A DNA stretch of 32,000 nucleotides from Gammaproteobacteria bacterium (GCA_965279305.1 OZ257143.1:1320001-1352000), one strand, 5' to 3'; counted from the first letter of the stretch, positions 4,438-15,094 are shown. Numbers and translations are program-made. Notes: generated by a model from the sequence alone, not told the origin.

Positions 4438-4792
4438 ATAAACCCTATGCCAATCAGTAAAACTACTAAAATGTTGGATTTGTCCACAGTAAAGCGGACA
4501 ACTACGGATGATAGGGTATCATATTTATCTATGGTAGGCTACTGTCTAACTAAAATCGCAAGATGAGATATTTGCATATCTTCAGAGGGCTTCTAGCCTG
4601 TACCCATATCTCAGTCATAAGCTCTCATCAATATGGCTCAGTGGAACGCAAAGAGGGGCGAATAGGGGGATTTAAAGCACCTTTCTAGGCCAATCTAAGG
4701 ATTCATTTAGCATATAAAATTTGTTATAATAATGACTAATATTAAAGAGGAATAGCTTTAAGATAAAACTGATTATAAAATCAGTTTATCTA

Positions 4793-7700
4793 ATGCTAAG
4801 CAAAGTTATCATGGCTACAACAGACCCAATCAATCTATCGGATTGGTATAATTCCTCAATGAACCATAAGCTCATGATCGACAAAATTCTCAATACGTTC
4901 TCACACAGAAATAAATCAAATTCTGACGATTCCTATCGTCTTTCGTTAAAAGAAATGTTTGAGTGCCAGGTTAGCCTTACGCCCGAAAAGATTGCTATGC
5001 GCATGGATAAAGCAGCTCTTTCCTATAGCGAATTGAACGAAAAGGCCAACCAGCTTGCTAATAAGCTTTTAACTCAAGGCATAAAATCGGGTAGTGTTGT
5101 TGGGATATTGGTCGAACCCTCTATTGAAATGCTAGTAGCAATACTCGGAATCATTAAATCAGGTGCAGCCTATCTTCCCATAAACCCTGAGTATCCTAAA
5201 GACAGAATAGAGTTCATGCTAGATGACGCAAAAGCTTCTGTTTTACTTACCAAAGGTACTAATCATACATCCTTAGAATTTGATGGGATATCCCTGAGTC
5301 TATATGATCAAACAACCTATTCAGATAATACTAGCAACCCAAGCAATACAATTAATGAATCCGATCTCGCCTGTTTGTTTTATACGTCAGGTACTACAGG
5401 CCAACCCAAAGGGGTAATGGTTGAGCATCAAGGAATAGCTCTATTAGTAAAGGATATGGATTTCATTAGATTTTCTAAGGATGATAAAATCGCACAAGTT
5501 TCTAATTTAGCATTTGATGGAGCAACTTTTGAAATTTGGGGTGGTTTGCTCAATGGTTTAGAAGTAGTAATTATAGATAAAAATAATTTACTATCTCCCC
5601 AAAAACTACTTGATAAAGTGATTGAAAATCATATAACTATCATGTTCTTCACGCCAGCTCTTTTTAACATTTTAGTTAATGAATGTATTGAGATATACTC
5701 TTTTCTTAAAACTGTAGTTATTGGTGGGGATGTTGCTGACCAACAAAAAATATTACAAGTTCTTGGTTTTTCAAAAAACATACAAATAGTAAATGGATAT
5801 GGCCCCACAGAGACAGTCACTTTTAGCATATCTTGTGATTTGAGTATTGATCTTATCAAAAAATCAAACTGTGTTCCTATTGGGAAACCGCTTCTTCATA
5901 CAGAAATATATATATTAGATGAGAATATGCAGCCCGTTCCCATAGGTGAGAAAGGGGAAATATATATTGGGGGCAGAAAAATATCAAAAGGTTATTTGAA
6001 CAATGAGAAGCTTACTGCAGAAAAATTTATAGATAATCCTTTTTTAGAGCATAATAAATATGCTATTGGGAAAAAACTATATAAAACAGGAGACTTGGGA
6101 CGATGGTTATCGGATGGCAATATAGAATTTTGTGGCAGAAAAGATAACCAAGTTAAGATTAGAGGCTTTAGAATTGAGACAGAAGAGATAAAAAGAGCCA
6201 TTTTAGAATTTAATGGGATACATGATTGCGTGATTGTACCTAAAAAAGACATTAAGACCAACAGCACACGTCTTGCAGCCTATATTACTGTAGATAACAA
6301 AAATGACATAAACAAGATTAAAAAATTACGCACATACTTATCTCTTCATTTGCCAGATTATATGGTTCCATCAACCTTTACCATATTAGACAAGATCCCT
6401 CTTAATCATAACCTTAAAGTCAATATTTCTGAACTACCCGAACCTGAATTTACAAATAACACGGAAGAATATATCCCGCCAAGAAATGAATTAGAAACAA
6501 ATTTATGCGAAATTTGGAAAAAGATCTTTGAAAAAGAACGGATCAGTATCAATGATGATTTTTTCCATTTAGGAGGAGACTCCTTGATGGTAATGCAAAT
6601 GATTAGTATGGCCTCAGCCTATGACATTGACCTGGATATAGCTACGGTTATGGAACATAGAACAATTGCATCAATGGTCGAACATATAAAGAAAGACTCC
6701 TTACATAATAATGAAATTAGAACAGTAGATTTATCATCGCTTTCCCCCATAGAAAATTGGTTTTTTAGTCAAAAATTTTCAAACCCCAATATGTTTAATC
6801 AAACAGTAAGCCTAAATACAAAAATATCGCTAAAGAAAGACCTCATTAATAAGACTTTTTACTATCTAATACAAGCTCATCAGGCATTATCATTTAGATA
6901 TCAATGTGCCAATGGAACATATGAAAGAAGGCTCTCTGAGGCTAATCATGAAAATTTTGACTACTGTTTACTTGTCGATTTAACAAGTAAAAGCAGTGAA
7001 GAAATTGAAAAACTTAAAAATGAATTCTCTTTAAAAGTTCAAGAAAATATTGATATAGAAAAGGGTACTTTAATTCAGGCTATCCTATTTGTGGATAACT
7101 ATAAGAACTCTCAAGAGCTATTTATTGCAATCCATCACTTAGTGGTTGATGCTATGTCATGGCGAATTTTTCTTGAGGATTTTGAAAATATATATTTACA
7201 AGTAAGTAATAACTTATCACATATATCATTACCTAAGAGTACGCTGCCTTATTCTTCATGGGTAAGCCATCTATCTGGAAAGGAGAACCTATCTTCCATC
7301 GATTTTTGGAAGACTCAACTTCCATCTGCGTACAATTCTATACCCAAAGATTTTGATAGGGGAGCTAACAATGAAAGCTCTTCCAGAAATATTGGCTTTG
7401 AAATTGATGAAAAAACCACAAGAAAATTGCTGACCACCGCTGTCAAATACTATGCTGTCCCCATTACCGAAATACTTCTATTAGCACTATCAGAATCATT
7501 CAATTCATTTATCAAAAAAAATGAATTATCTATTGATCTAGAGCTACATGGAAGAAGTGGGTTTTCAAGAGAGATAAACTTAAGCCGAACATTGGGATGG
7601 TTTACTACTATCTTCCCATTTAAAATTAACACCAATAATCTTAAATCATATGAAGAAAAATTACAAAAAATACATATAGATCTAGGTAAATGTAACCCCA

Positions 7701-8074
7701 CTGAGTACGGGGTCATTAAATATATGTCTAATGGTAAAACATCACCTGATTTTGAAATTGAACCAGAGGTAAGCTTTAACTATTTAGGGCAATGGAAAAC
7801 TACCTGTCTTCAAAACTCATTCCTTTCGTTTAAAGAAAATGGCTTGAATCTACATTCATCCCCACATAACAAAAGACCTCATCTTATTGATATTGCCGCT
7901 CAAGTTATAAACGAAAAAATGAAGATTTCTTTTAATTACAGCACAAATCATCATAAGCATGACACTATTAAAAACTTAACTAGCCATTTTGAAAAGGCAA
8001 TATATAAGATTCTATCTGAATGCAAAGAAGACGCATATATTCATTCAGATGCAATTTATGAGATTTCATTATGA
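4793..8074 (+). CDS. single-module nonribosomal peptide synthetase, A-T-E (adenylation, carrier, epimerization), GrsA/TycA-like, 1093 aa
   Basis: Adenylation cores are 'LFYTSGTTGQPKG' (A3), 'FDGATFE' (A4), 'NGYGPTE' (A5), 'YKTGDLGRW' (A7) and 'GRKDNQVKIRGFRIE' (A8). The carrier motif is 'FFHLGGDSLMVMQM' (Ser597, nt 6581-6583). Epimerization cores are 'PIENWF' (E1), 'HHLVVDAMSWRIF' (E2, nt 7133 onward), 'ELHGRSG' (E4), 'RTLGWFTTIFPF' (E5) and 'FNYLGQW' (E7). Confidence 0.9.
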   Translation: MLSKVIMATTDPINLSDWYNSSMNHKLMIDKILNTFSHRNKSNSDDSYRLSLKEMFECQVSLTPEKIAMRMDKAALSYSELNEKANQLANKLLTQGIKSGSVVGILVEPSIEMLVAILGIIKSGAAYLPINPEYPKDRIEFMLDDAKASVLLTKGTNHTSLEFDGISLSLYDQTTYSDNTSNPSNTINESDLACLFYTSGTTGQPKGVMVEHQGIALLVKDMDFIRFSKDDKIAQVSNLAFDGATFEIWGGLLNGLEVVIIDKNNLLSPQKLLDKVIENHITIMFFTPALFNILVNECIEIYSFLKTVVIGGDVADQQKILQVLGFSKNIQIVNGYGPTETVTFSISCDLSIDLIKKSNCVPIGKPLLHTEIYILDENMQPVPIGEKGEIYIGGRKISKGYLNNEKLTAEKFIDNPFLEHNKYAIGKKLYKTGDLGRWLSDGNIEFCGRKDNQVKIRGFRIETEEIKRAILEFNGIHDCVIVPKKDIKTNSTRLAAYITVDNKNDINKIKKLRTYLSLHLPDYMVPSTFTILDKIPLNHNLKVNISELPEPEFTNNTEEYIPPRNELETNLCEIWKKIFEKERISINDDFFHLGGDSLMVMQMISMASAYDIDLDIATVMEHRTIASMVEHIKKDSLHNNEIRTVDLSSLSPIENWFFSQKFSNPNMFNQTVSLNTKISLKKDLINKTFYYLIQAHQALSFRYQCANGTYERRLSEANHENFDYCLLVDLTSKSSEEIEKLKNEFSLKVQENIDIEKGTLIQAILFVDNYKNSQELFIAIHHLVVDAMSWRIFLEDFENIYLQVSNNLSHISLPKSTLPYSSWVSHLSGKENLSSIDFWKTQLPSAYNSIPKDFDRGANNESSSRNIGFEIDEKTTRKLLTTAVKYYAVPITEILLLALSESFNSFIKKNELSIDLELHGRSGFSREINLSRTLGWFTTIFPFKINTNNLKSYEEKLQKIHIDLGKCNPTEYGVIKYMSNGKTSPDFEIEPEVSFNYLGQWKTTCLQNSFLSFKENGLNLHSSPHNKRPHLIDIAAQVINEKMKISFNYSTNHHKHDTIKNLTSHFEKAIYKILSECKEDAYIHSDAIYEISL

Positions 8075-8805
8075 AATACGAGTCTTTTGATAAAATCAAT
8101 AACCCCATCATCCCTATAAGAAAAAGAGGCAATGAAAGTAAAATTTTTTTCGTGCATGCCTTAAGTGGTGTAGGTTTTGAATACTATTCGCTATCTCCCT
8201 ATTTAGACAAATATGATTTATATGCCATAAATGATCCTACAACAGCTTCAGGAGCAGCCAATTTTAATAGTATTGAGGAAATGGCTTCTGTGTATGTAAG
8301 TTTTTTAAAAACCATACAAAAAGAGGGTGCTTATATATTGGGAGGTTGGTCTTTTGGTGGGCTTGTTGCTTATGAGATGGCATTACAGCTGAGTAAGCAA
8401 AATGAAGAAACTAAAGTTATTTTTATAGATACCCCATGCTTACAAAAACACCCTTCGAGTTTAAATCCAAATAGAGTCAAAGAGTATATAATCCAAAAAG
8501 GAATAAAAGAAGATTCTCAAAGTTTTAAGAAACTTTTTCAAAGAATAATGCATAACATGAAACTAGCTAAAGAATATACTCCAATTCATAATCCTAACAT
8601 TTCAGTTTTTCTGTTAAAAGCATTAGAGCAATTTCCTGATGAAGGATATACATTTACTGATGACCCCACAAATGGATGGTCATCTGATTTTTTACAGGAA
8701 AACCATATATTACCTATCCAAGGAAATCATTTGTCATTATTTGATCCAGACAATGTGCAGGATTGTGCTGAAAAATTGCACTTCGTTTTAAATGGCCTAA
8801 AATAA
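8071..8805 (+). CDS. discrete thioesterase (alpha/beta hydrolase, 244 aa)
   Basis: It has the 'GGWSFGG' nucleophile elbow (GxSxG) and a C-terminal 'QGNHLSLF' candidate catalytic His. Its ATG overlaps the NRPS stop (ATGA at 8071-8074), indicating translational coupling. Confidence 0.85.
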   Translation: MKYESFDKINNPIIPIRKRGNESKIFFVHALSGVGFEYYSLSPYLDKYDLYAINDPTTASGAANFNSIEEMASVYVSFLKTIQKEGAYILGGWSFGGLVAYEMALQLSKQNEETKVIFIDTPCLQKHPSSLNPNRVKEYIIQKGIKEDSQSFKKLFQRIMHNMKLAKEYTPIHNPNISVFLLKALEQFPDEGYTFTDDPTNGWSSDFLQENHILPIQGNHLSLFDPDNVQDCAEKLHFVLNGLK

Positions 8806-11461: not shown

Positions 11462-11664
11462 CACACTTATATTTTATAGGAGTTGGTTTTTTGTTTTTTT
11501 AGTAATATGACCTAATATTTCGATGTCCATTTTGTAAGCTGTCTCTCACGTTGTTTTCCGAATTCTTCCAATATGCAAGTTCAACATAAACCCTTTATAC
11601 TCCATTCTTTGTTCATGGAGAACGTACTATTCTGATTAGTAATAAGATAGATAGGAATTACCAA

Positions 11665-13539
11665 ATGCACTCTCACTTTTTAAGTAGAATAATCTCTTCT
11701 ACCGCTCTATTTTTTATGATGTCTTCCGTTGTAATAGCAGAGCCTATTCGTTTGCCTCCATTTAGCGGTTTATGGTTTGCTGGCAGTTATAAAGTAGTTG
11801 AAGGTTCACAATATGAAACCGCATGCGAAGAAACGATTGCCGAATATATCTTCGATAATGTCAGTGATGATCCTGTAAAGGCAGCCATTCTCTATAAAAA
11901 AAACGAGCTTTATGATCGTTTTGGGAAGTTTCCCGATTCTTGCTCAACTAATGCTGTAGAAAAATTCTATACTTTTATTCCTGAAACATTCCCAATTACA
12001 GGTGATTCCTACGATGTGGTTGCTATTTGGGAAATAATTACTTCAGATCCATCCAACCCTGTAGTGACTAATGTTGAGGTAGAATGCAAAATGGATGATA
12101 GTATTTTTCGTGAAAAAGTATATGTCGATCCTCACTATGATAATTGCGAACATGGTAGTTGCTACGATATTTGCTATGGAGACATTCTTGCTCGAAGCTT
12201 AAATGTTGCAGGCTTTGAATCCCTTGGACACACAGGCATCGGAGATTTGACCGTTTTTAACGCGGAGAGTAATGAAAATTACAGGGTATTAGAATTTCAG
12301 AAGGATGAGACCACATGGGAGGGTGGGGTTCACACCCCATATTTAAAAATTTTTCAAGCTGAAGCGACCTATTGGGGCAGTCGATTTGGTAGACCATCAC
12401 TATCTGAACCTCCAGTTTTAACAAAAAAAGAAGGCGAAAAAATTATAGAATATGCAAACTCTCAAAGATTTAGTTGTCATGAATATACTCTCACAAGAGA
12501 TTGGTATCCTGCATCTCAAAAAGCAACCTCTGTTTATGATTCAACCACTAAAAAATGGATACACCAAACTGCGGAGCAATGTGGTAAGTTTCGCTGTGAT
12601 ACTTTTGTAACATACGCATATCTTCAAGGAGCAAATATTCTTATTCCTCCTGGTCCAACAGGAGAATATACCCCATATCCTATTGAAACATACGAAAGTC
12701 TCCCATATATAAGGCCTGCAAGCTTAGAATCAGATGCATCTCTGGATGAAATAAATTCGCTACATTATATTGAGGGCTGGCAAGAACATATCAATAGCCT
12801 TTCCTATGAAGATGCCTTTAATGAGATGATTGAGCTTTACTTAGATGCTCCCCAAACTCAAAGAGATGGGTATGCTTATTTACTGCTTTTAGTATTTGAA
12901 CGTCTTAGCCAAGATAACAACTTTAGCCCTAAGCAACGAGCAGATATGATTTGGACATATATTATGAGTTATAAAAACGAACCTGACCTATTAAATGTGT
13001 TTATTGATGCTATTAATAACAATGTATTTGATTCTATCGAATACATATCTAAAGCAACTAGCCTTATTAGTGAACAAAATCATCCTGGGTTACACCTACA
13101 TACTCTATCCTTAATAACCAACATTTATGCGCATCAATTGGTTGGTATGGAAGATGAAAGATCTTTGAAAAATGTAAAAATAATACAGGATTTTTTCAAA
13201 AAGCAATTAAAAACTCAAGATGGCATTTTACTCAAGCAAACCATTAATTATTCATCACAGGTTTTACCTTACGATGAATTGGAAAAACTACTATATGCCA
13301 TTCCATTAGATAGAATTGACGATATAGATTCTGCCAGCCATACATTGGCAGCTATCTCTTTAAACTATTTAACCAAAGGCTCCAGAGAATGGGATGCCTT
13401 CTGGAACAGAACTCCTAAAGAGTGGGTAACCCCAATCAGTGAGAGGTTAAACATGTTGTTCAGTGATAGTCAGTTTGCGGATCAGTATTCCAGCGTACAG
13501 AACGAGCTAGTAATGGCGCGTCTACAATTGATATTGTAA
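11665..13539 (+). CDS. secreted protein with a putative permuted-papain (YiiX/C92-like) domain (624 aa)
   Basis: An N-terminal signal-peptide-like segment is 'ALFFMMSSVVIAEP'. The motifs 'YGDIL', 'LGHTGIG', 'YRVLEF' and 'FRCDTFVTYAY' appear in the same His-before-Cys order as E. coli YiiX ('GDIIF', 'SHTGML', 'VFEA', 'YCSEVVWKVY', recalled from memory). The C-terminal ~300 aa is unassigned. Confidence 0.55.
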   Translation: MHSHFLSRIISSTALFFMMSSVVIAEPIRLPPFSGLWFAGSYKVVEGSQYETACEETIAEYIFDNVSDDPVKAAILYKKNELYDRFGKFPDSCSTNAVEKFYTFIPETFPITGDSYDVVAIWEIITSDPSNPVVTNVEVECKMDDSIFREKVYVDPHYDNCEHGSCYDICYGDILARSLNVAGFESLGHTGIGDLTVFNAESNENYRVLEFQKDETTWEGGVHTPYLKIFQAEATYWGSRFGRPSLSEPPVLTKKEGEKIIEYANSQRFSCHEYTLTRDWYPASQKATSVYDSTTKKWIHQTAEQCGKFRCDTFVTYAYLQGANILIPPGPTGEYTPYPIETYESLPYIRPASLESDASLDEINSLHYIEGWQEHINSLSYEDAFNEMIELYLDAPQTQRDGYAYLLLLVFERLSQDNNFSPKQRADMIWTYIMSYKNEPDLLNVFIDAINNNVFDSIEYISKATSLISEQNHPGLHLHTLSLITNIYAHQLVGMEDERSLKNVKIIQDFFKKQLKTQDGILLKQTINYSSQVLPYDELEKLLYAIPLDRIDDIDSASHTLAAISLNYLTKGSREWDAFWNRTPKEWVTPISERLNMLFSDSQFADQYSSVQNELVMARLQLIL

Positions 13540-13559
13540 CCTAATAATGAGCATCTATT

Positions 13560-14201
13560 CTAAAGTACTCTTCGAACAATACCAAGGCGTATGGCGGTCT
13601 CAGTTATCTCGCTTTTACTAGTGCAGTCTAATTTTATTTTGATTCTTTCGACATAATCTTCGATCGTTCTGTGCGACAGTTCTAATCGTTTTGCAATTTT
13701 CTTAGATGTAAGCCCAAGAAAAATATAATTAAATACATCACTCTCACGGGGAGTAAAGAGATTAAGGTGATTTACAAACTTGGGTATCAATTTTTCATCA
13801 GTTACATCCATTGCAACACCAAGCACGCCCACAATATGCCCTCTTTCATCTATGAGGCAAGACTTTTCCGTCCTAACAACCATGTTATTCCCATCCACTC
13901 GTTTTATAGGAAGCTGATGCTCAGTAATTTTTATTCCACCACTTTCTATAACCTCTTGATCATCCTTTTGAAAGGATTCGGCTTCCTTTACTCCCCAATT
14001 TAGCTCTTCATCTGTTTTACCCCAAAGAGCCTCTCTGGATAAGCCAGACAGAATAACCATATTTTTATTAAATCCTAGGTATTGAGACTTTCTGTTTTTC
14101 CAGTAAACAAAACCTGGCATGTTGTAAAGAATATCTTCCATAAAAGAACGGGAGAGCAAGGCTGCATTAAATGGTTCTGAACCGTGTGTCAATTTTTGCA
14201 T
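13560..14201 (-). CDS. PAS-domain LuxR-family transcriptional regulator (213 aa)
   Basis: The N-terminal PAS 'PGFVYWKNRKSQYLGFNKNMVILSGL...VLGVAMDVTDEK' is paralogous to PAS2 of the kinase. The C-terminal LuxR HTH is 'TPRESDVFNYIFLGLTSKKIAKRLELSHRTIEDYVERIKIKL'. Confidence 0.8.
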   Translation of the reverse strand: MQKLTHGSEPFNAALLSRSFMEDILYNMPGFVYWKNRKSQYLGFNKNMVILSGLSREALWGKTDEELNWGVKEAESFQKDDQEVIESGGIKITEHQLPIKRVDGNNMVVRTEKSCLIDERGHIVGVLGVAMDVTDEKLIPKFVNHLNLFTPRESDVFNYIFLGLTSKKIAKRLELSHRTIEDYVERIKIKLDCTSKSEITETAIRLGIVRRVL

Positions 14202-14216
14202 AAGGAGTTGCCATTA

Positions 14217-14335
14217 AAAATAAAGATGTTTTTCTGACATATTAATTATGTTTATCTACTATATAATAGCATTAACCCACACAGCAGACCATCAGGATAT
14301 TTCTTGGATTCCTAGCTTAAAATACTTACAAAATG
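14217..14335 (-). promoter_or_regulatory. conserved upstream block, copy B (5' region of the PAS-LuxR gene)
   Basis: This is the partner of 11343-11461. The shared 20-mer is at 14260-14279 and the shared 17-mer at 14319-14335. The block fills almost the whole 141-nt gap between the stop of the membrane-protein gene and the PAS-LuxR start. Confidence 0.6.
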
Positions 14336-14342
14336 TCCATCA

Positions 14343-15065
14343 TTATCTATTTATCTTCAGGTATCTATCTTCGCCTATTTTTGTAACGATAACGCTCTTA
14401 TTATCCAGTGTCATCACAAAAATATCCCCACCCATAGTGCCTAAATATTTGTAATTTTCATTCAATGCATTGTTTTTTGAAGACCCAAAAGAGACTGTTT
14501 GAAAAGATTTATTTTCAAGTATTTTTTCCGCATCCATTCTTCCTGAATCAAGCATTAAAAGGGGATATGCCCCAACAAAAAATAGTAACAATTTTAATGT
14601 ATGGTTGGTTGAGAAAAACTGAGGGAAGAATTTTTCGATTAAAAACAAAGATGGAGGAATCGCTAGAACCATATAAAAACATACCCAGTTTGTAGGAGAT
14701 TCATCACTGGATAGAATATAGACAGCATAAAAAATAAAATAAAAACTAATAAAAATAGAAAGAAAAACCTTAAATCCTTTTGATACTTTCTTTGGTTTCT
14801 TTTCTATATCAACTATCTTTTCTTTTTTATTACCAACCCTCCAAACAGAAAAAGAAACCAGAAATAATACTATCAACGCAATGAAAAATGAGATTTGTGC
14901 AATATTGGATAGAGGGAACTTAAAGAGATCCCAAAAATTAGAAAGTGAAACAATATTAACGTCAAATTGTGACCAATATCCTGCGTTATATAATAGAGCA
15001 GCAAAGAATAGGTAAAGAACTACTCCATTGATTGCATATATTCCATATCTTAATTTATTTTCCAT
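14343..15065 (-). CDS. integral membrane protein (240 aa, about 5 hydrophobic segments plus a soluble C-terminal ~70 aa)
   Basis: Hydrophobic runs include 'GVVLYLFFAALLY', 'ISFFIALIVLFLVSFSVW', 'VFLSIFISFYFIFYAVYIL', 'VCFYMVLAIPPSLFLI' and 'LLLFFVGAYPLLML'. It starts 29 nt after the stop of the Sel1 gene on the same strand. Confidence 0.6.
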   Translation of the reverse strand: MENKLRYGIYAINGVVLYLFFAALLYNAGYWSQFDVNIVSLSNFWDLFKFPLSNIAQISFFIALIVLFLVSFSVWRVGNKKEKIVDIEKKPKKVSKGFKVFLSIFISFYFIFYAVYILSSDESPTNWVCFYMVLAIPPSLFLIEKFFPQFFSTNHTLKLLLFFVGAYPLLMLDSGRMDAEKILENKSFQTVSFGSSKNNALNENYKYLGTMGGDIFVMTLDNKSVIVTKIGEDRYLKINR

Positions 15066-15094
15066 TTTTTCTCCCTATTTACTTAAATTACTAT

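Follow-up and report, generated by a model that had tools for sequence, protein, structure and literature searches.

What can a nonribosomal peptide synthetase (NRPS) of a single module make if it ends in an epimerization (E) domain and is followed by a thioesterase (TE) instead of a partner with a condensation (C) domain? The question is raised by two genes at positions 4,793 to 8,805 of a 32,000-nucleotide stretch of DNA, in the following the window, from Gammaproteobacteria bacterium (GCA_965279305.1, OZ257143.1:1320001-1352000). Our analysis covers this one 32-kb window of a contig of at least 1.87 Mb. An earlier note on the same DNA described the synthetase as a GrsA/TycA-like initiation module consisting of an adenylation (A), a carrier (T) and an E domain. 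It offered three ways in which the pair could work: it could release a free D-amino acid or a simple derivative, the TE could dimerize or transfer what it receives, or a distant partner could accept the D-aminoacyl thioester. We favor the first. The pair may well be a self-contained monomodular synthetase that releases a D-amino acid, or a very simple derivative, autonomously, although we stop just short of calling this probable.

The synthetase

The A-T-E architecture of the 1093-aa synthetase is borne out by Pfam as well as by matches in the PDB. Pfam finds AMP-binding (aa 57-402), AMP-binding_C (aa 466-540), PP-binding (aa 571-632) and a domain of the Condensation superfamily (aa 650-1079), in this order. 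The N-terminal 56 aa match no Pfam domain, and there is no C domain ahead of the A domain. At 33% GC an open frame of 1093 codons would arise by chance with a probability of about 1e-37 (estimated from base composition). Hence, the open reading frame (ORF) is not a chance product. The public gene call (P0001) has 1087 aa and starts at the second ATG, at position 4811.

By its motifs and its structural matches the third domain is an E domain and not a C domain. Its ten best PDB matches are all E domains (phmmer, 7.6e-58 to 5e-48). TycB3 comes first (7.6e-58), followed by GrsA (5.1e-53) and TycA (2.5e-51), and then by BacC (bacitracin synthetase 3) and PvdL at about 1e-48, whereas the best C domain reaches only 3.6e-7. 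The earlier note had allowed for the possibility that domain predictors would call a C domain here; with C domains matching about 40 orders of magnitude worse, this has fallen away. All motifs that it quoted are in place: E1 PIENWF at aa 652, E2 HHLVVDAMSW at aa 781, E5 RTLGWFTTIFPF at aa 932 and E7 FNYLGQW at aa 995, to which we can add E4 ELHGRS at aa 917. In residue-level alignments HH..D, the Glu of EGHGRE, RT.GWFT and FNYLGQ are all in register. The catalytic Glu is kept in ELHGRS, where it aligns with the Glu of GrsA and TycB.

The other two domains look intact as well. In the carrier domain the Ser expected from the motif to bear the phosphopantetheine is aa 597, and its GGDS-type motif is of the kind that precedes E domains. 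The A domain scores 411 bits with the NCBIfam model TIGR01733 (cut-off 317). Its core motifs are intact (A3 YTSGTTGQPKG, A5 NGYGPTE, A7 YKTGDL, A8 GRKDNQVKIRGFRIE and A9 LPDYMVP), apart from A10, which is degenerate (NLKVNI) and retains its Lys.

To read the specificity code, the plain numbering offset from GrsA is unusable, because the stretch from the Asp235 equivalent to A5 is 6 aa longer in this A domain. Local motif anchoring and a MAFFT alignment with five other A domains lead to the same code, DGFFVGGTFK, which is also the code that the earlier note had obtained by hand. Equivalents of Asp235 and Lys517 are both present, which argues for an alpha-amino acid as substrate. In 7 of 10 positions the code agrees with DAFFLGVTFK, which belongs to a B. 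cereus module, and we take its start (DGFF) and its end (GGTFK) to be those of Ile and Val codes. The substrate is probably a branched aliphatic amino acid of the Val/Ile class, a class that is a lead from known codes and not the call of a predictor.

A word-indexed search of 5.8e9 proteins for relatives of the synthetase returned mostly multimodular synthetases, and among the matches listed the synthetase itself is the only one above 42% identity. A scan of species-representative genomes gave one irrelevant locus at 23% identity; the source genome is not included in that collection.

The thioesterase

The start codon of the TE overlaps the TGA stop codon of the NRPS by 4 nt (ttATGAaa), just as the earlier note said. 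By this ATGA overlap the TE is translationally coupled to the synthetase. What kind of TE is it? Its best PDB match is the TE of NocB (NocTE; 6ojc, E 1e-28, aa 24-242), with which about a third of the residues are identical. AB3403, EntF, fatty-acid synthase and Pks13 follow, each with its terminal TE, and at E<=0.01 the PDB yields no type II editing TE. The catalytic triad is invariant in an alignment of four sequences. It consists of Ser94, in the GWSFGG motif that was noted before and that lies at aa 92-97, Asp120 and His220, which align with Ser1779, Asp1806 and His1901 of NocTE.

We also ran an exhaustive HMMER pass with the TE over 1.84e9 representative proteins. Only 10 proteins match at E<=1e-30, with at most 37% identity, and nearly all of the best 150 matches are made through the C-terminal domain of a large synthase. 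Among the architectures of the top matches are A-T-TE-TE, C-A-T-C-A-T-TE, KS-KR-ACP-TE, A-T-TE, F-A-T-TE (F, formyltransferase) and T-E-TE. Judged by these relatives, the TE is a type-I offloading TE and not an editing (type II) TE. It differs from the type I norm in being a separate ORF that is not fused to the last carrier domain.

The T-E-TE match (P0263) turned out to be the end of one 3791-aa ORF, which belongs to a multimodular cluster on a 93-kb metagenome contig. Since A, T, E and TE are fused in this order at its end, TEs of this kind do work directly behind E domains. The combined linker across the boundary between NRPS and TE in the window (16 + 25 aa) has a length much like that of the linker joining E and TE in P0263, consistent with a gene split. 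The 3791-aa NRPS itself (L004, 1460-12835) carries an ankyrin-like tail behind A-T-E-TE, and the gene caller had split its ORF in two. In another relative of the TE, the polyketide synthase (PKS) P0256, an ankyrin repeat lies ahead of the TE.

One relative of the TE is much closer (P0127, 73-74% identity). It lies on a 2.2-kb metagenome contig (JGI 3300075153), where the TE overlaps the upstream gene (a fragment of 232 aa) by 4 nt and a gene on the same strand (a fragment of 229 aa) follows about 95 nt downstream. By this arrangement another organism has kept the NRPS-TE pair together with its spacing, and from the same overlap and the closely following downstream gene we argue that the pair is under selection. 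Neither of two further metagenome scans, for which we used the TE alignment and a degenerate pattern made by hand for HALSGVGFEYY, gave a match.

NocTE is itself an epimerase, and we looked for its signature in the TE of the window. This candidate had to be rejected. The extra His is absent (His1808 and Arg1826 of NocTE correspond to Pro122 and Tyr139), and no diagnostic residue is known.

One-module synthases beside sensor kinases

The gene behind the TE encodes a hybrid sensor histidine kinase with PAS, PAS_4, HisKA and HATPase domains and a degenerate, receiver-like C-terminus, in this order. The kinase is predicted to be cytoplasmic, having no transmembrane (hydrophobic) segment. Since the gap of 107 nt between the end of the TE and the start of the kinase contains no terminator-like site (the scan was otherwise at the level of shuffled sequence), the kinase is probably part of the same transcript as the NRPS-TE pair.

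The same neighborhood is found in Legionella. A search of PLSDB with the TE alone singled out three Legionella loci, one in L. lytica and two in L. adelaidensis (Table 1). In all three the synthase is a single protein with the TE at its C-terminal end, and the flanks that we retrieved (up to 12 kb to either side) contain no further annotated NRPS gene. The TEs of the two species are about 30-32% identical to the TE of the window. At all three, the adjoining kinase belongs with that of the window to one subfamily of PAS hybrid kinases. Compared with the window's kinase, the L. lytica kinase is 31% identical over 459 aa, the kinase at the first L. adelaidensis locus (L006) is 35% identical over 366 aa (tblastn), and the kinase at the second (L007) is colinear over its full length. 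When PLSDB is searched with the PAS region only, the best match (42% identity) is again the L. lytica kinase beside the NRPS. We speak of a pair where a single-module synthase of this TE clade has a PAS_4-HisKA-HATPase kinase within about 0.5 kb, and the window contains such a pair, too. We found no paper that describes a pairing of synthase and kinase in Legionella.

Members of the kinase subfamily are also encoded next to other enzymes and a CsrA-like gene on plasmids of L. pneumophila, L. geestiana and L. antarctica, and the subfamily extends to the renieramycin plasmid of Ca. Endohaliclona, an organism placed in Legionellales. On the conjugative L. pneumophila plasmid NZ_CP015948 a related kinase is divergent from an oxidoreductase (L011, 7328-8692), to which the 491-aa oxidoreductase upstream of our synthetase is homologous (33% identity over 426 aa, E 9e-60). 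Because oxidoreductase and kinase are adjacent on this plasmid, the NRPS-TE pair of the window sits exactly between the counterparts of two direct neighbors. It looks as if the pair had been inserted between them.

In the L. lytica synthase, the stretch that separates formyltransferase and A domain retains a partial match to Condensation (aa 323-556, covering profile positions 194-451). The A-domain code of this synthase is DAWQFGLIDK, which we take to be a Gln code. Such a code would imply a product of the N-formyl-Gln type. Monomodular NRPSs of Legionella have been catalogued before, with the architectures F-A-T-Red, F-A-T-TE, a hybrid of Val plus one malonyl unit, and A-T-C (Tobias et al. 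2016, PMC5126622). Their predicted products are modified amino acids, to which no function was assigned (PMC5126622).

Is there a partner for the synthetase?

If the synthetase were to hand on its amino acid, there should be a C domain to receive it. In the window there is none, as the earlier note had stated. The 4.8 kb upstream hold four non-NRPS genes, and the 23 kb downstream are free of NRPS genes. Pfam finds no second Condensation or AMP-binding domain in any window ORF of at least 80 aa. Nor did tblastn over all six frames of the 32 kb, with four multimodular NRPSs that have ordinary C domains and with the NRPS and the TE themselves, find anything outside 4793-8805 (the best match outside has an E value of 0.057). 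Across the six frames the only HHxxxD[GA] motif is the E2 motif. MbtH-like and phosphopantetheinyl transferase (PPTase) signatures are absent from the 32-kb window as well. A 438-aa ORF upstream has a size that would fit a hidden C domain; it was discarded as a candidate, with no HHxxxDG motif and no Condensation match at E<=5.

The C-terminus of the synthetase speaks against a partner elsewhere, too. The E domain is followed by a 16-aa tail only, KEDAYIHSDAIYEISL, and the protein ends 7 aa past the conserved (T/S)xSD motif (…ECKEDAYIHSDAIYEISL). We compared this end with those of E-terminated relatives (P0007, P0010, P0017/19, P0039, P0043, P0060 and P0105). They run 18-26 aa past the SD motif and carry an acidic amphipathic docking helix of the L..E.LD..L type (e.g., …TPSDFPEAELSQEELDELMSEFQVF). 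Similarly, the solved chains of TycA, GrsA and TycB3 extend 27-41 aa beyond the end of the alignment (to which tags may add), compared to 11-15 aa in our synthetase. Hence, while all seven E-terminated relatives have the helix, no COM donor helix was found at the C-terminus of the synthetase, which makes a canonical hand-over in the style of GrsA to GrsB unlikely; other modes of docking remain conceivable.

What does this mean for the synthetase as an ordinary initiation module of the GrsA/TycA type, which would pass its D-aminoacyl thioester to a C-domain synthetase elsewhere, with the TE acting at the end of the line or as a helper? The likeness to such modules is real: GrsA and TycA share the A-T-E order without an N-terminal C domain and have a length like the 1093 aa of our synthetase, the nearest relatives of its E domain are those of TycB, GrsA and TycA, and a contig of at least 1.87 Mb leaves much room outside our 32 kb. 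The likeness ends at the missing COM helix and at the missing downstream partner with a D-accepting C domain in the window. Furthermore, one would not expect to see a type-I TE translationally coupled with an initiation module, and the analogous Legionella loci stand alone. We therefore consider an initiation module unlikely.

Neighboring genes and origin of the locus

The features of the locus, together with the three Legionella loci, are listed in Table 1.

Table 1. Position and assignment of the genes, domains and regions discussed in the text, in the window and in Legionella.
Locus	Feature	Size	Position	Strand	Basis or remark
Window	Divergently transcribed NAD-binding protein, 2-hydroxyacid-dehydrogenase/CtBP type	491 aa	2962..4437	-	PF02826 E 4.5e-6, CtBP matches
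Window	Divergent intergenic region oxidoreductase/NRPS		4438..4792	.	presumed promoter region
Window	Monomodular NRPS, A-T-E	1093 aa	4793..8074	+	ORF call, Pfam
Window	Adenylation domain	aa 57-540	4961..6412	+	Pfam E 2.8e-83
Window	Carrier (T) domain, LGGDSL	aa 571-632	6503..6688	+	PF00550 E 3e-13
Window	Epimerization domain	aa 650-1079	6740..8029	+	PDB phmmer
Window	Discrete type-I-like thioesterase	244 aa	8071..8805	+	PF00975 E 1.4e-21
Window	Hybrid sensor histidine kinase	676 aa	8913..10943	+	Pfam, NCBIfam
Window	Single-domain response regulator	125 aa	10940..11317	-	PF00072 E 1.2e-26
Window	PAS-LuxR regulator	213 aa	13560..14201	-	Pfam PAS_4 + GerE
Window	Sel1-repeat protein	1236 aa	15095-18805	-	
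Window	Protein with N-terminal DnaJ domain only	1631 aa	19161-24056	-	
L. lytica L005	Synthase F-(C remnant)-A-T-TE	1410 aa	8509-12741		kinase 12734-15091, 8-nt overlap with NRPS stop
L. adelaidensis L006	Synthase F-A-T-TE	1391 aa			kinase 1945-878 (-), divergent, 434 bp upstream
L. adelaidensis L007	Synthase A-T-KS-AT-KR-ACP-TE	2315 aa			kinase 11593-13620, 30 nt downstream, then Hpt protein

Upstream of the synthetase, the N-terminal half of the 491-aa protein weakly resembles the 2-hydroxyacid dehydrogenase/CtBP fold. Through the shared intergenic region of 355 bp this oxidoreductase may be co-regulated with the NRPS. Promoter-like matches in that region (4438..4792) are at or below shuffled expectation, and no site was assigned. 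Next to it lies the 438-aa protein (1649-2965, +), to which no family could be assigned. An 87-aa helix-turn-helix ORF (1165-1428, -) weakly matches the N-terminus of IS630-family transposases (E 0.0025) and could be what is left of a transposase, close to the margin of the island of regulatory genes that surrounds the NRPS.

On the other side, the response regulator is convergent with the kinase, the ends of the two genes sharing 4 nt; the receiver domains of hybrid kinases on Legionella plasmids match it with 40% identity. A 624-aa protein with a hydrophobic, signal-like segment at its N-terminus follows (11665-13539, +) and, like the 438-aa protein, lies within the island. PDB sequence searches with the 438-aa and the 624-aa protein gave no match. 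Single-sequence AlphaFold models of the 491-aa and the 438-aa protein reached a predicted local distance difference test (pLDDT) score of 35 and 33, respectively, and were not used. Two LuxR-type regulators flank the locus (13560-14201, -, and 761-1132, -). The PAS domain of the first is 32% identical to a PAS domain of the kinase (127 aa, E 1e-17), and it is possible that this PAS-LuxR regulator is a second reader of whatever cue the kinase perceives.

Is the pair foreign to the genome in which it resides? The earlier note saw roughly a quarter GC at the locus and nearly half in lysS, which our measurements contradict. GC is 33.4% in the NRPS and 32.2% in the TE, compared to 38.4% in lysS and 37.0% in the whole window. 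At third codon positions (GC3) the genes are alike: 0.28 in the NRPS, 0.24 in the TE, 0.29 in lysS, 0.28 in gltX and 0.26 in the Sel1 gene, a range of 0.24-0.29 that also includes the DnaJ gene. With equal GC3, the AT-richness of the pair reflects amino-acid composition (first and second codon positions) and not foreign DNA. On this ground we reject a recent horizontal transfer of the NRPS-TE pair.

The genome itself probably belongs to an undescribed lineage. LysS (28258-29757) has relatives with 97, 76, 74, 72 and 70% identity in raw-read assemblies and metagenomes, and named relatives at 63% or less, which include Aquicella siphonis, Methylophaga and a metagenome-assembled genome of Legionellales. 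The Sel1 and DnaJ genes lie side by side with a 105-aa ORF in between, and giant repeat and J-domain proteins are typical of host-associated Legionella-like bacteria. The relatives of LysS, these two proteins and the Legionella affinity of kinase and oxidoreductase together suggest a Legionella-like, probably host-associated gammaproteobacterial lineage. The only RNA gene found in the window, a tRNA-Arg (CCT; 24861-24934, -), lies between the large genes of host-interaction type and a housekeeping block, trhO-gltX-prfB-lysS-mlaFED, where strand and GC skew switch.

Proposed release of a D-amino acid

How could such a pair work on its own? Going by its motifs, the A domain would adenylate an L-alpha-amino acid and load it onto the holo-T domain; the likeliest substrate is a branched aliphatic one of the Val/Ile type. 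The E domain, whose active site is intact, would then equilibrate the aminoacyl thioester between L and D. Finally, the discrete TE would take the aminoacyl unit onto Ser94 and release it, presumably by hydrolysis. In sum, the pair would spend ATP to turn an L-amino acid into a free D-amino acid. Inversion would be complete with a TE that prefers the D-thioester; without such a preference the outcome would be racemization. This is the logic of the fungal enzyme IvoA, with the TE standing in for IvoA's terminal C domain.

Four observations support autonomous release: the TE is of the type-I kind, the COM helix is absent, pair and overlap are conserved in a relative, and the Legionella loci stand alone. 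They do not amount to proof, and a number of points weigh against it. First, no sequence feature of the TE points to a preference for the D-thioester, and we know of no sequence marker of D-selectivity in TEs. Second, the substrate class is a resemblance of codes, backed neither by a predictor nor by an assay. Third, a PPTase gene was not found in the 32-kb window, and elsewhere on the contig there is space for a trans-acting C-domain synthetase or acceptor. Fourth, one ATP per turnover is expensive for a free D-amino acid if compared to a racemase. Fifth, the kinase may simply regulate the genes of the pair instead of sensing their product. Sixth, on four non-Legionella metagenome contigs no such kinase lies near the relatives of the TE, which makes the link to the kinase specific to Legionella-like loci. 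We also found no paper that describes a bacterial A-T-E synthetase and TE making free D-amino acids.

The TE could do more than hydrolyze. The amine of a second aminoacyl-T could attack the aminoacyl-TE ester and yield a dipeptide or diketopiperazine, or the aminoacyl unit could be transferred to a lipid, an amine or a sugar. There is precedent for iterative TEs in gramicidin S and enterobactin. The TE is of the type-I kind that forms products, the 491-aa oxidoreductase and several unannotated neighbors could provide an acceptor or modify one, and iterative use of the TE by monomodular Legionella NRPSs has been raised as a possibility (PMC5126622). Yet nothing in the sequence tells a TE that oligomerizes or transfers from one that hydrolyzes, a gene that would make an acceptor was not recognized (the models of neighbors, with pLDDT 33-35, are unusable), and the nearest characterized TE, NocTE, is a hydrolase. 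On balance we doubt that the TE forms a bond.

It is very improbable that the pair is just the decaying remnant of a C-A-T-E-TE termination module from a lost multimodular synthetase, without a present function: a fused A-T-E-TE end does exist elsewhere in the 3791-aa synthetase and the genome does look reduced and host-associated, but frames of 1093 and 244 codons are open at 33% GC with all catalytic motifs intact, GC3 equals that of the host genome, and TE and overlap are conserved in the relative with 73-74% identity.

If the pair does release a small molecule, what would it be for? Since the kinase neighborhood is conserved in Legionella-like loci, the product is probably a small-molecule cue, with either its synthesis or its perception tied to the adjacent phosphorelay. 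One can be more specific, at the price of a much lower probability. The pair would then be an ATP-driven L-to-D stereoinverter that acts as a signal synthase. Its product, a free D-amino acid of the Val/Ile type or something closely derived from it, would be perceived by the PAS hybrid kinase, itself made from the same transcript, and the PAS-LuxR regulator might perceive it as well. It would be one of several interchangeable cassettes of monomodular synthase and kinase, and N-formyl-amino acids or short aminoacyl-ketides would play an equal role in other Legionella-like intracellular species. In this full form we regard the scenario as rather improbable.

Autonomous release would have consequences beyond this locus. 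If the pair works alone, then the IvoA principle, in which NRPS machinery serves the irreversible conversion of an L- into a D-amino acid and not peptide synthesis, would for the first time have a counterpart in bacteria. The pair would also be a simple two-protein system for the production of D-amino acids. The repeated pairing of a one-module synthase with one kinase subfamily points to undescribed small-molecule signaling circuits in Legionella-like bacteria, of which, to our knowledge, only one autoinducer system is known. The products of the widespread monomodular NRPS genes of Legionella have been without assignment since the catalogue of 2016.

Comparison with known systems

GrsA and TycA resemble the synthetase in domain order, in their nearly equal length and in their E domains (matches of 1e-51 to 1e-53). 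Unlike them, the synthetase has no adjacent partner synthetase gene and no COM donor helix, is followed by a TE of its own, and has a predicted substrate that is aliphatic and not Phe.

In principle, IvoA of Aspergillus nidulans is closer. According to a review, IvoA is a single-module A-T-E-C NRPS that converts an L- into a D-amino acid and uses its C domain as a hydrolase (PMC11546977). Its substrate is L-tyrosine in the text of that review and L-tryptophan in the title of the primary paper that the review cites (Hai et al., JACS 2019). Going by the same account, IvoA and our pair share a single A-T-E module with a release catalyst and without a peptide-forming step. However, IvoA is fungal, a single polypeptide, and releases with a C-type domain, whereas our pair is bacterial and has a discrete TE of the alpha/beta-hydrolase type. 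In sequence the two are related through shared domain families only.

NocTE, the best solved relative of the TE, has the same conserved Ser/Asp/His triad and handles a C-terminal residue that becomes D-configured (PMC6711958). It differs in being fused to the last module, in its pentapeptide substrate, and in carrying out the epimerization itself, for which our pair has a dedicated E domain.

The gene of a small-molecule synthase beside that of a sensor kinase is also known from LqsA-LqsS in Legionella and CqsA-CqsS in Vibrio (PMC3376566, PMC5289986), an analogy that bears on the signaling scenario only. LqsA and CqsA belong to an unrelated enzyme family, acyltransferases dependent on pyridoxal phosphate, and their kinases are membrane-bound, whereas the window has an NRPS and a kinase without a transmembrane segment.

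In its genomic habit the pair is most similar to the monomodular clusters B, C, G, I and F of Legionella, which likewise combine a single module with a tailoring domain and a TE (PMC5126622). The likeness does not extend to close kinship. The A-T part and the TE are no closer to Legionella proteins than to cyanobacterial or Firmicute ones, and the Legionella codes (DAWQFGLIDK, DLPEMGEVSK and DGYFLGGCYK) differ from DGFFVGGTFK. Kinship with cluster F (A-T-C) was considered and dismissed, for the plasmid-borne relatives of the E domain come from Firmicutes or cyanobacteria, with no Legionella protein among them. Judged by its domains, all families of the pair are known, its principle is closest to IvoA, and its habit is that of the Legionella synthases. 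The latter tailor with an N-terminal formyltransferase or a PKS module and have a fused TE, while our pair has an E domain and a discrete TE. Among the monomodular synthases of this kind the pair, as we read its domains, adds epimerization as a new tailoring step.

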